Shown here one piece after another: positions 18,340 through 19,325 of a stretch of 64,000 nt of DNA; position 1 is the stretch's first letter; each line of letters begins with the position of its first letter. The position numbers and the translations under genes were made by a program. The notes beneath the pieces are model-generated. The model ran no database searches. It saw nothing but the letters and a program-made list of their open reading frames with translations, and was not told the origin of the DNA. Source of the stretch: Bacteroidales bacterium (lineage in GTDB: Bacteria > Bacteroidota > Bacteroidia > Bacteroidales > UBA932); contig JAEEVG010000002.1 in assembly GCA_016290835.1 (NCBI GenBank), positions 10,869 through 74,868 of the forward strand, given 5' to 3'.

Positions 18340-19325
18340 TCGCGACCGGCTTTTTCGACGGTGTCCATCTGGGGCACCGCCAAGTCTTGCAGACACTCGT
18401 CTCCTCCGCCCGCCAAAGGGGCGAGGAGGCGATTGTCGTTACCTTTTCACGGCATCCGCGGGCCGTGTTGCAGCAGGATGCCCGTCAGCTGCGTTTGCTG
18501 AATTCGCCGCAGGAGAGGGAGGCGCTGTTGCTTGCGCAGGGTGTGGACCGGGTGGAGACGCTGCCCTTCGACCGCGCGTTTGCGCGTCTGAGCGCGGAGG
18601 AGTTTATCCGGACGGTGTTGCTGGGGAGGCTGGGGGCGACGCTGCTCGTGCTCGGCTATGACAATCGCCTCGGCTCCGACCGCCTCACGCCCGACCGCCT
18701 CGCGCCCCTCGCCGAATCCCTCGGCCTCGAAGTCCTCATCGTCCCCCCGGCTTCCACTGAAATGCGGCTCGGAAGCTCCCCCCTGGAAACGTCCTCCTTC
18801 GTCGGACCCCACCGCTTCGCGGTCCCCCCTCTTACGATGCCGAGGGTGGCACGGTTTCCTGGGGGGACTTCCGATGCCGCCTCTATTCCCGCGGAGGCAG
18901 GGGGTGTGGCGATTAGTTCGACGCGGATCCGGAAGGCGTTGGAGGAGGGGAGAGTGGAGGATGCGGAGGCGATGCTGGGGTATCCATACAGGCTGCGGGG
19001 CGTGGTCGTGGGCGGCAAGCAGCTGGGCCGCACCCTGGGCTATCCGACGGCCAATCTGCGGCTGTACGATCCGATGAAACTCGTCCCCGCCCGGGGCGTC
19101 TACCTGACGGAAGTCGAAGTCCTCGGCAGCCACTACTGGGGGATGACCAACGTCGGCGACATCATCGAGACCCACATCTTCGACTTCAACGAGGATATTT
19201 ACGGCCACGACCTGGAGATCCGCTTCCGCCGCTGGCTGCGCCCGATGCGCCCGATGGAAGACCTCGACGCCCTCAAGACCCAGCTCGCCGCCGACGAATC
19301 CGCCTGCCGGGCGCTGCTGAAATGA
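18330..19325 (+). CDS. ribF: Bifunctional riboflavin kinase/FAD synthetase with an internal ~45-aa insertion
   Basis: GFFDGVHLGH, LGYDNRLG, ISSTRIR, GRTLGYPTAN, PARGVY, ETHIFDF; 10-nt overlap with glgP. Confidence 0.93.
   Translation: MAVVATGFFDGVHLGHRQVLQTLVSSARQRGEEAIVVTFSRHPRAVLQQDARQLRLLNSPQEREALLLAQGVDRVETLPFDRAFARLSAEEFIRTVLLGRLGATLLVLGYDNRLGSDRLTPDRLAPLAESLGLEVLIVPPASTEMRLGSSPLETSSFVGPHRFAVPPLTMPRVARFPGGTSDAASIPAEAGGVAISSTRIRKALEEGRVEDAEAMLGYPYRLRGVVVGGKQLGRTLGYPTANLRLYDPMKLVPARGVYLTEVEVLGSHYWGMTNVGDIIETHIFDFNEDIYGHDLEIRFRRWLRPMRPMEDLDALKTQLAADESACRALLK
18744..18904. repeat. Nested imperfect palindrome inside ribF
   Basis: Arms 18764-18790 and 18854-18880 are near reverse complements; outer arms 18744-18755 and 18893-18904 pair at 11 of 12 positions; inner hairpin ACCGC-TTC-GCGGT. 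Confidence 0.8.

Follow-up and report, generated by a model that had tools for sequence, protein, structure and literature searches.

A palindromic insert in ribF of a Bacteroidales bacterium, probably one copy of a dispersed repeat family that also lies in frame in other genes

In a Bacteroidales bacterium of the UBA932 lineage, the gene ribF, encoding the bifunctional riboflavin kinase/flavin mononucleotide (FMN) adenylyltransferase, carries an extra in-frame segment of 52 codons that folds into a long palindrome, and this raises the question of what kind of DNA has come to lie inside the gene. The gene is located at 18330–19325 on the forward strand of a stretch of 64,000 nucleotides (contig JAEEVG010000002.1 of GenBank assembly GCA_016290835.1, positions 10,869 to 74,868), which we call the window and to which all coordinates refer unless another locus is named. 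Our answer, to which we assign a probability of roughly four in five, is that the insert is one translated copy of a dispersed family of non-coding palindromic repeats in rumen and gut Bacteroidales. An earlier note on this DNA had proposed a coding-tolerant mobile repeat akin to the Rickettsia palindromic elements (RPEs). Copies in frame in many unrelated housekeeping genes support that proposal, and the likeness is one of behaviour, as the two were set side by side by description and not by sequence.

The insert in ribF and its fold

The reading frame of ribF (331 aa) is continuous through the element. The extra segment spans 18750–18905 on the forward strand (156 nt, residues 141–192), encodes ASTEMRLGSSPLETSSFVGPHRFAVPPLTMPRVARFPGGTSDAASIPAEAGG and lies between the motifs EVLIVPP and VAISSTRIR. 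It is absent from the shortest orthologues and from the solved flavin adenine dinucleotide (FAD) synthetases; the closest of these, 3OP1, aligns on both sides of the segment and has two unaligned residues, compared with 49 in the window RibF. When the best 120 homologues (63–100% identity, 281–381 aa) were compared, all length variation was confined to this loop: 42 proteins have inserts of at least 40 residues, four have partial inserts of 22–25 residues, and the remaining 74 have linkers of 3–14 residues. The insert is hence not a feature of all orthologues, and the contrast drawn in the earlier note, extra low-complexity residues after EVLIVPP in place of a typically short linker, holds. 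The gene itself looks functional. Its product matches the Pfam domains FAD_syn (residues 2–149, 6e-37) and Flavokinase (residues 216–329, 3e-32), and outside the insert residues are strongly conserved across 42 orthologues, whether these have the element or not; among the conserved stretches are the N-terminal GFFDGVHLGH and the SST(K/R)IR segment that adjoins the insert.

The fold is dominated by an inverted repeat (I1) with two arms of 27 nt at 18764–18790 and 18854–18880. The sequence of the 5′ arm is specific to this copy and ends in a family-conserved GGAAAC, while the 3′ arm starts with GTTTCC; this main stem is backed by covariation and compensatory changes. Minimum-free-energy structures add an outermost weak stem between 18744–18755 and 18893–18904, in which 18744–48 and 18750–55 pair with 18893–98 and 18900–04, and the 5′ arm of which overlaps the conserved host codons for VPP. 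Three hairpins are enclosed by the main stem. Hairpin 1 (18791–18807, GTCC...GGAC), found by folding and by covariation (helix 3), is preceded by the nearly invariant C of a CGTC motif. Hairpin 2 (18811–18823, ACCGC TTC GCGGT), seen in the fold, ranges from 9 to >60 nt in the family, and hairpin 3 (18827–18846) consists of a CCCTC/GAGGG stem, which covaries between core types, and a 10-nt loop, TTACGATGCC. A second helix at 18835–18853 overlaps hairpin 3, with the loop bases C-GAT-GCC (18835–18841) pairing with GGC-A-CG (18848–18853) on the 3′ side of the hairpin. The most conserved motif of the core, the 24-nt CCCTCTTACnnnGCCGAGGGTGGC at 18827–18850 on the forward strand, falls in this region.

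With RNA parameters the insert folds at −88.6 kcal/mol, compared with −68.8 ± 4.1 kcal/mol for dinucleotide shuffles (z = −4.78; none of the 200 came as low), and with DNA parameters the z-score is −4.63. The in-frame nested palindrome of about 160 nt that the earlier note had drawn, with its outer stem, its 27-nt stem and its three inner hairpins, was thus recovered part by part, and it folds far better than shuffled sequence. On the protein side, an AlphaFold2 prediction of RibF from a 42-sequence alignment gave a poor model (mean predicted local distance difference test score, pLDDT, of 52.5), in which residues 142–198 have pLDDT values <35 and no secondary structure; we use the model for nothing beyond this sign that the insert is unstructured. 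The insert is probably translated as a disordered loop of about 50 residues, rich in Pro, Gly, Ser and Ala.

Copies in other genomes, genes and ribF alleles

The 24-nt motif served as query for collection scans. In a scan of one genome per prokaryotic species it was found in at least 119 stretches, with 122 motif copies among the matches listed, to which the copy counts given below refer. The copies come from about 85 metagenome-assembled genomes (MAGs), several of them with 3–4 loci each, that originate from goat, sheep, buffalo, deer, yak and cattle forestomachs, from anaerobic digesters and from human gut. Almost all of them carry the label Bacteroidales, Bacteroidia, Candidatus Cryptobacteroides or Rikenellaceae; the sole label outside Bacteroidales, Bacteroidia and Rikenellaceae is Firmicutes, for the bin that contains L101 and that may be mis-binned. 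The segment is therefore not single-copy, and ribF accounts for only 4 of the 122 motif copies. The consensus core of the family reads ACGTC-hairpin 1-GACCCC(T/A)CC-hairpin 2-CCCCYCCCTCTTACnnnGCCGAGGGTGGC(n)ACGG.

The family covariance model (R1) finds additional copies that lack the exact motif. One of these, L003:6532-6637, is a second copy in the closest relative of the window, located 5 kb from ribF. It is held in frame by a predicted membrane protein of 140 aa (L003:6358-6780, minus strand); the orthologue in the window (21455–21826, minus strand) has no copy, and its centre is too diverged for a clean empty-site comparison. Within the window, the model gives a full-length match at 18773–18871 on the forward strand (89.1 bits, E = 3.6e-19), which is the sole significant one. 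No second copy was found in the 64 kb by blastn, by a pattern search allowing three mismatches or by an unfiltered covariance-model scan, and no target-site duplication is visible at the ribF copy, both in agreement with the earlier reading. The next-best score, 17.8 bits at 27592–27653, was rejected as a second copy because it belongs to a plain intergenic hairpin without the family core. This hairpin has a perfect 18-bp stem, is followed by a second short GC hairpin at 27656–27674, and occupies a gap between open reading frames (ORFs) that end at about 27514/27577 and one at 27832; the pair looks like a terminator and could conceivably be a core-less remnant.

Metagenomes give the same impression of abundance. 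Word depth in cattle-gut metagenomes is 270–500 over 18803–18864, compared with about 11 on the ribF flanks, a 25- to 45-fold excess, and metagenome contigs break at 18803–18864 with many alternative continuations. A second core type was found in at least 120 stretches of metagenome contigs. The core pattern had no match in the viral contigs of IMG/VR, and the exact window-specific arm had none in metagenome contigs, so that no sister copy of the window subfamily was recovered there. Elsewhere in the family, L086 and two copies in L114, all full-length and at three sites on two contigs of one MAG, are 91–95% identical over about 121–133 nt including the arms, which indicates recent copying of the whole unit. 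In one of the L114 copies (L114:7480-7600) the 5′ arm is tandemly duplicated (CTGCCGGTGCCKGGGCAGCTCGGGGCC twice).

We counted a copy as genic when a stop-free frame of at least 190 aa reached at least 90 nt on both sides of it, as is the case for 74 of the 122. A Pfam scan of 42 such read-through frames assigned 34 to bona fide families. These include UvrD, FtsK, RNase R twice, RsmB/F twice, RsmH, DnaX, RluA-type and TruA pseudouridine synthases, MiaA, MetRS, PmbA/TldD, a radical-SAM protein, 2-oxoacid dehydrogenase E2, 3-dehydroquinate synthase, a GHMP kinase, an NDP-sugar dehydratase, GT2, an MFS transporter and CutC. Several of the domain alignments cross the element with some 40–60 extra residues, as in the RNB domains of 369 and 377 aa against a model of 326 positions, and in UvrD_C with 390 against 350. 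A read-through frame at L079:1621-4083 (minus strand) matches PF10712 ('NAD-GH'), which we take to be an antisense artefact family; it was excluded from the 34, and the real host gene probably lies on the opposite strand. Taken together, these frames show a multicopy family whose members read in frame in many real genes.

The copies outside genes are mostly intergenic or intercistronic, for example among pyrD, pyrF and pyrE in L066, and none of the 48 copies outside long read-through frames clearly interrupts a gene. Coding sequence takes up about 88% of a bacterial genome. With about 60% of the copies genic, genic copies are therefore depleted, which fits selection removing disruptive insertions. 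The element itself tends to be open: an average of 3.3 of the six frames lack stops in the copies, compared with 2.0 in composition-matched shuffles; genic copies reach 3.6 and the others 2.7. The element points either way relative to its host gene in roughly equal numbers, and its orientation may differ at the same site between species, as in UvrD (L024 forward, L096 reverse) and in an FAD-dependent protein (L116 forward, L022 reverse).

In ribF this variability can be followed allele by allele. The insert peptides of the orthologues appeared mutually unrelated until they were compared with the window element translated in all six frames. P0020, and likewise the latter half of P0071, then matched its reverse strand (73% over 37 aa, E = 3e-17), and others matched other frames. 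The DNA of twelve ribF alleles confirmed that a single nucleotide element is read in different frames and in both orientations, with two elements side by side in L002. The RibF tree does not separate forward, reversed, type-B, doubled, remnant and short alleles but mixes them, which means that the state of the element has changed many times. Two pairs of alleles illustrate this: those of L127 and L128 are 97.6% identical save for one clean indel of 126 nt, and those of L006 and L129 are 96.3% identical save for one of 120 nt. Moreover, the unit in L127 (about 165 nt) is the exact inversion of that in L006, bounded by a short outermost repeat (GCCGTTGCC...GGCAACGGC) that is too short to have caused an assembly ambiguity. 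The linkers of the short alleles in L129 and L128 are likewise reverse-complementary to each other (GTTGCCGGCGTAGTGGAATCGGCAGC and GCTGCCGATTCCACTACGCCGGCAAC), which identifies the linkers of 11–14 residues as remnants of internal deletion and not as virgin sites; their junctions lie at microhomologies of 3 nt. As for the empty alleles that the earlier note proposed to look for, short alleles exist, but most of those in close relatives are such remnants and not pre-insertion sites. The ancestral state is likely a linker of three residues (P/A/H-V-E), seen in the four orthologues P0098, P0115, P0116 and P0118.

Two further alleles (P0007, at L130:1001-2017, and P0063) retain an outer stem of the L006 type around a different sequence (…GAAAAGTCCCCCCTTACGAACCGCCCCGAAGGGAAAAATCCCCCTAATAGGGGG…), an apparent swap of the core within a retained stem. 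The window core is 92% identical to that of the orthologous copy in L003, whereas identity is 75% at third codon positions of ribF and 58–78% in the outer parts of the element, and an arm change from GCGGC/GCCGC to GCCAT/ATGGC is compensatory. These comparisons show that the element at ribF has been inverted, doubled, exchanged for another type and partly deleted on short timescales.

Could these inversions be the purpose of the element? Intragenic invertons of gut Bacteroidales are segments flanked by inverted repeats within genes, with two translatable orientations; they are locus-specific and driven by invertases. An intragenic switch of this kind, which would alternately recode loops of RibF and of other proteins by inversion within a population, and thus produce phase variation, would account for the near-identical ribF alleles of L006 and L127 with the whole unit in opposite orientations, for the remnants in L129 and L128, for the opposite orientations in UvrD and in the FAD-dependent protein, for the long inverted arms and for the fact that both orientations are open in the host frame. 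It leaves unexplained, however, the spread to dozens of unrelated genes and to intergenic sites, the behaviour of a dispersed repeat family and not of a single locus. The two orientations yield similarly featureless loops with no functional switch apparent, and contigs of four metagenomes, which may hide rare variants, contain no strand-changing joint. We therefore consider a switch improbable, while noting that it fares best among the alternatives to a dispersed repeat.

Constraint on the folded core and traces of mobility

The units measure 105–180 nt with stems of 18–38 bp, and their arms are wholly different in sequence between copies although complementarity is kept. In 43 copies, 92.9% of the cells are standard-paired, compared with 74.7% after shuffling; of the 32 pairs, 22 have changed on both sides, and a shift of the partner by one column lowers pairing to about 50%. 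The covariation suggested as a check in the earlier note is thus found. Exactly three inner hairpins are present in the folds of 83 of 113 copies. The helix that overlaps hairpin 3 is kept as well, with pair 95-112 being GC in 25 copies, AU in 16, CG in two and unpaired in none, and pair 97-110 being GC in 13, AU in 10 and unpaired in none. This helix is either a pseudoknot or an alternative fold, and its simultaneous formation with hairpin 3 is doubtful given a connecting loop of 1 nt.

Three core types can be distinguished, namely CCCTC-TTACnnnGCC-GAGGG-TGGCnACGG (type A), CCCGT-TCACGAGRCC-ACGGG-CGGCCACGG (type B) and CCCGC-TATCAAGC-GCGGG-TGCTTAGGG (type C). Both helices and the C-tract linkers recur in each type despite the different sequences, and the stem of hairpin 3 changes in concert from CCCTC/GAGGG to CCCGT/ACGGG and CCCGC/GCGGG. 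The CGTC at hairpin 1 is nearly invariant in type A, and type B has CTTC. The linkers between the hairpins (18803–18831 in the window, and in all core types) are conserved C-tracts, CCCCTCCC or CCCTCCC; on the complementary strand they read GGGAGGGG…GGGAGGGG, prone to form a G-quadruplex or i-motif with hairpin 2 in the central loop. Hairpin 2 is expanded to >60 nt in L011, L025, L035 and L102, and in a type-B copy at L031:2705-2849 a further perfect hairpin (GAGGATTTCCGCGCCCGGAAATCCTC) sits inside the hairpin 3 loop.

A structure this well conserved might act in the messenger RNA. If it were a cis-acting element of the ribF transcript, selected for ribF expression through regulation, stability or translational pausing, then the strong RNA fold (z = −4.8), the covarying base pairs and the presence of copies in metatranscriptome contigs would all be expected. 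The element occurs, however, on either strand relative to ribF and its other hosts, many close RibF orthologues do without it, and about 40% of the copies lie outside long frames. Mismatches in the stem are G·T in 40 cases and A·C in 46, so that the G·U and A·C types are equally frequent; together with the mixed orientation, this indicates that the constraint is symmetric in both strands, and argues for a palindrome at the level of DNA rather than an RNA element of the host transcript. A search of 18600–19050 against Rfam 15 with E up to 10 returned noise only (best E = 2.1, far under the gathering score), and ARAGORN called no gene, and hence nothing tRNA-like, in the insert region. A role in the ribF transcript is accordingly very improbable.

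It is harder still to regard the insert as an ordinary lineage-specific loop expansion kept for RibF function, with the palindrome incidental. The segment is in frame, in a loop and persistent in many orthologues, as such an expansion would be, but the same DNA yields unrelated peptides in several frames and both orientations, recurs in unrelated genes and between genes, and is cleanly present or absent among alleles that are 96–98% identical; the core is conserved as DNA, with no such conservation of the peptide. Selection is shown to act on the structure of DNA or of a single strand, and not on the peptide. Equally remote is the idea that the element escapes translation, either because ribosomes bypass it, for which the bypassed 'byp' inserts in Magnusiomyces mitochondrial genes provide a precedent, or because the mRNA loses it: a strong hairpin inside a coding region and the absence of direct evidence for the peptide would suit this idea, but genic copies keep the host frame without stops, which bypass would not require, no gene is clearly split among the 48 copies, and the metatranscriptome contigs, which carry the core in transcripts other than ribF and none of which spans the ribF junctions, contain no skipping joints.

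How, then, would a dispersed palindromic repeat spread? Adjacent copies are arranged convergently (plus, then minus) in all eight pairs found (L022:3008-3259, L013:4568-4854, L031:2705-3008, L092:1479-1783, L023:1894-2147, L002:2903-3163, L167:375-624 and L105:5941-6189), an outcome with a chance of about 1.5e-5 under equal likelihood of the four arrangements. Six of the eight have a spacing of about 41–51 nt between model matches, and all six pairs that were examined by sequence are heterotypic (A with B, or A with C). In L092, L053, L070, L087 and L122 the palindrome reaches 10–18 bp past the part shared with sister copies and is copy-specific on both sides; the cause may be that copies inserted within older remnants, that the palindrome grew outwards by template switching or that the flank was copied in inverted form. 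An origin of the arms as inverted target flank found no support in RNase R (L021), in which the palindrome in its entirety comes on top of the host sequence that would be expected.

From these traces a tentative course of events can be proposed. A copy would have inserted into a surface loop of the FMN-adenylyltransferase domain that tolerates additions, immediately ahead of the SSTRIR motif, and would persist since the frame was kept and contains no stop. The conserved folded core may be the recognition module for a copying machinery, probably as folded single-stranded DNA or as a cruciform, with the arms only supplying the stem. Recombination between the inverted arms, or a switch of template from one to the other, could then give rise to inversions, and slippage over the hairpin at microhomologies of 3 nt to deletions; disruptive insertions would be purged by selection. 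Taken to its full extent, the proposal amounts to a new class of mobile DNA, with a recognised core (a four-way junction plus the overlapping helix, kept in all three core types), ends free of sequence information and structure-specific copying, that would routinely remodel the surface loops of essential proteins through insertions, flips and partial deletions. We regard this wider claim as doubtful. If copying were indeed structure-specific, the convergent heterotypic pairs and the copy-specific extension of the palindromes would be footprints of the mechanism.

Several points weigh against a mobile, translated repeat and have to be taken into account. Direct repeats at the palindrome boundaries (offsets ±4) are as frequent as in a control from unrelated flanks, the position-specific composition of the flanks reaches at most 0.13 bits, and no terminal sequence is conserved, the termini being the least and the centre the most conserved part. 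A tblastn search with an approximate TnpA probe for an IS200-type Y1 transposase gave no hit with E <2 in 1.87 Mb of flanks. With no enzyme, duplication, target motif or conserved termini found, transposition is deduced from the distribution of the copies. Since the genome scan required the exact core, conservation of those 21 bases among its matches is by construction, and conservation of the core could partly stem from gene conversion among copies and not from selection. Translation of the insert is likewise judged from conservation of the frame, and the RibF model, with its pLDDT of 52.5, is of low quality. Apart from these points, none of the recurrent gene clusters among the ORFs of the loci is transposase-like. 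The top recurrent neighbours (phosphoglucomutase, a V-ATPase subunit, amylase, TruB and similar) were rejected as transposases, as they reflect shared synteny.

The surroundings of ribF are those of related loci, in which the gene order phosphorylase, ribF, greA, HIT, DUF4369 is kept. The start codon of ribF lies within the last codons of an upstream gene of 853 aa, with an overlap of 10 nt (18330–18339, …AAATGGCTGTAG), and this overlap suggests translational coupling. Orthologues of the upstream gene in L004, L007 and L130 match the Pfam families DUF3417, Phosphorylase and GlgP_C, that is, an alpha-glucan phosphorylase.

Relation to known palindromic repeats

Among known systems, RPEs behave most similarly. 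Following Ogata et al. (2000, 2002), PMC10969869 and PMC3733652 describe them as palindromic units of about 100–150 bp, multicopy and of several families, that often lie in frame in unrelated housekeeping genes, add a loop without inactivating the protein, and have no known associated transposase. The Bacteroidales family shares the palindromic unit, the multicopy dispersal and the recurrent in-frame insertion. RPEs are also stated to end in CGTC (in the part of PMC3733652 concerned with them), the motif that in our family hardly varies where hairpin 1 begins. The hosts differ, being obligate intracellular bacteria for RPEs and free-living, GC-rich gut and rumen anaerobes of another phylum here. 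RPE families are further said, in the relevant passage of PMC10969869, to encode a conserved peptide, whereas the Bacteroidales family is read in several frames and on both strands with no conserved peptide. In addition, it has a three-hairpin core with an overlapping helix, sequence-free arms, frequent inversion in situ and obligately convergent heterotypic pairs.

Repetitive extragenic palindromic (REP) sequences, with bacterial interspersed mosaic elements (BIMEs), REPINs and the CGTC-tagged REP superfamily, share GC-rich stem-loops, compensatory stem changes, occurrence in either orientation and a preference for inverted heterodimers, to be compared with the eight convergent pairs out of eight in our family (PMC3733652). 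CGTC-tagged REPs, whose tag recurs beside hairpin 1 of type A, have been reported in Bacteroidetes, without a dedicated transposase and with some inside coding regions (Di Nocera et al. 2013, PMC3733652). REPs, however, are single hairpins of 20–40 bp and mostly extragenic, while the Bacteroidales unit is 3–5 times longer, branched and at least half intragenic. In the 1.87 Mb of flanks covered by the approximate TnpA probe, no associated RAYT transposase came up. Bacterial MITEs, the miniature inverted-repeat transposable elements, such as Correia, ERIC, Coxiella QMITE1/2 and Porphyromonas BrickBuilt, are also small, non-autonomous, multicopy and foldable, and are occasionally fused in frame with host ORFs (PMC10969869, PMC5896051), but they have conserved terminal inverted repeats and target-site duplications, neither of which is seen here.

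A review of 2024 presents RPEs as the outstanding case of in-frame insertion, with occurrence elsewhere only speculated upon (PMC10969869), and a work cited in the corresponding passage of that review calls protein-coding palindromes 'a unique but recurrent feature' of Rickettsia. Our full-text literature search returned no description of such elements in Bacteroidales, which is absence of evidence within the texts searched; as far as could be checked, the family was previously undescribed.

The family shows behaviour like that of RPEs, hitherto treated as peculiar to Rickettsia, and does so widely among gut and rumen bacteria that are free-living and abundant. It offers a second, far more diverse system in which to follow the colonisation of essential genes by selfish DNA and the resulting diversity of protein loops. 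There are practical consequences as well, since metagenome assemblies break at the cores of the repeats, proteins of one orthologue group vary more in length because of them, and MAG proteomes can be wrongly annotated and aligned. Finally, the combination of a conserved core with sequence-free arms fits neither the MITE nor the REP model, and may indicate an undescribed mechanism of mobilisation in these bacteria.

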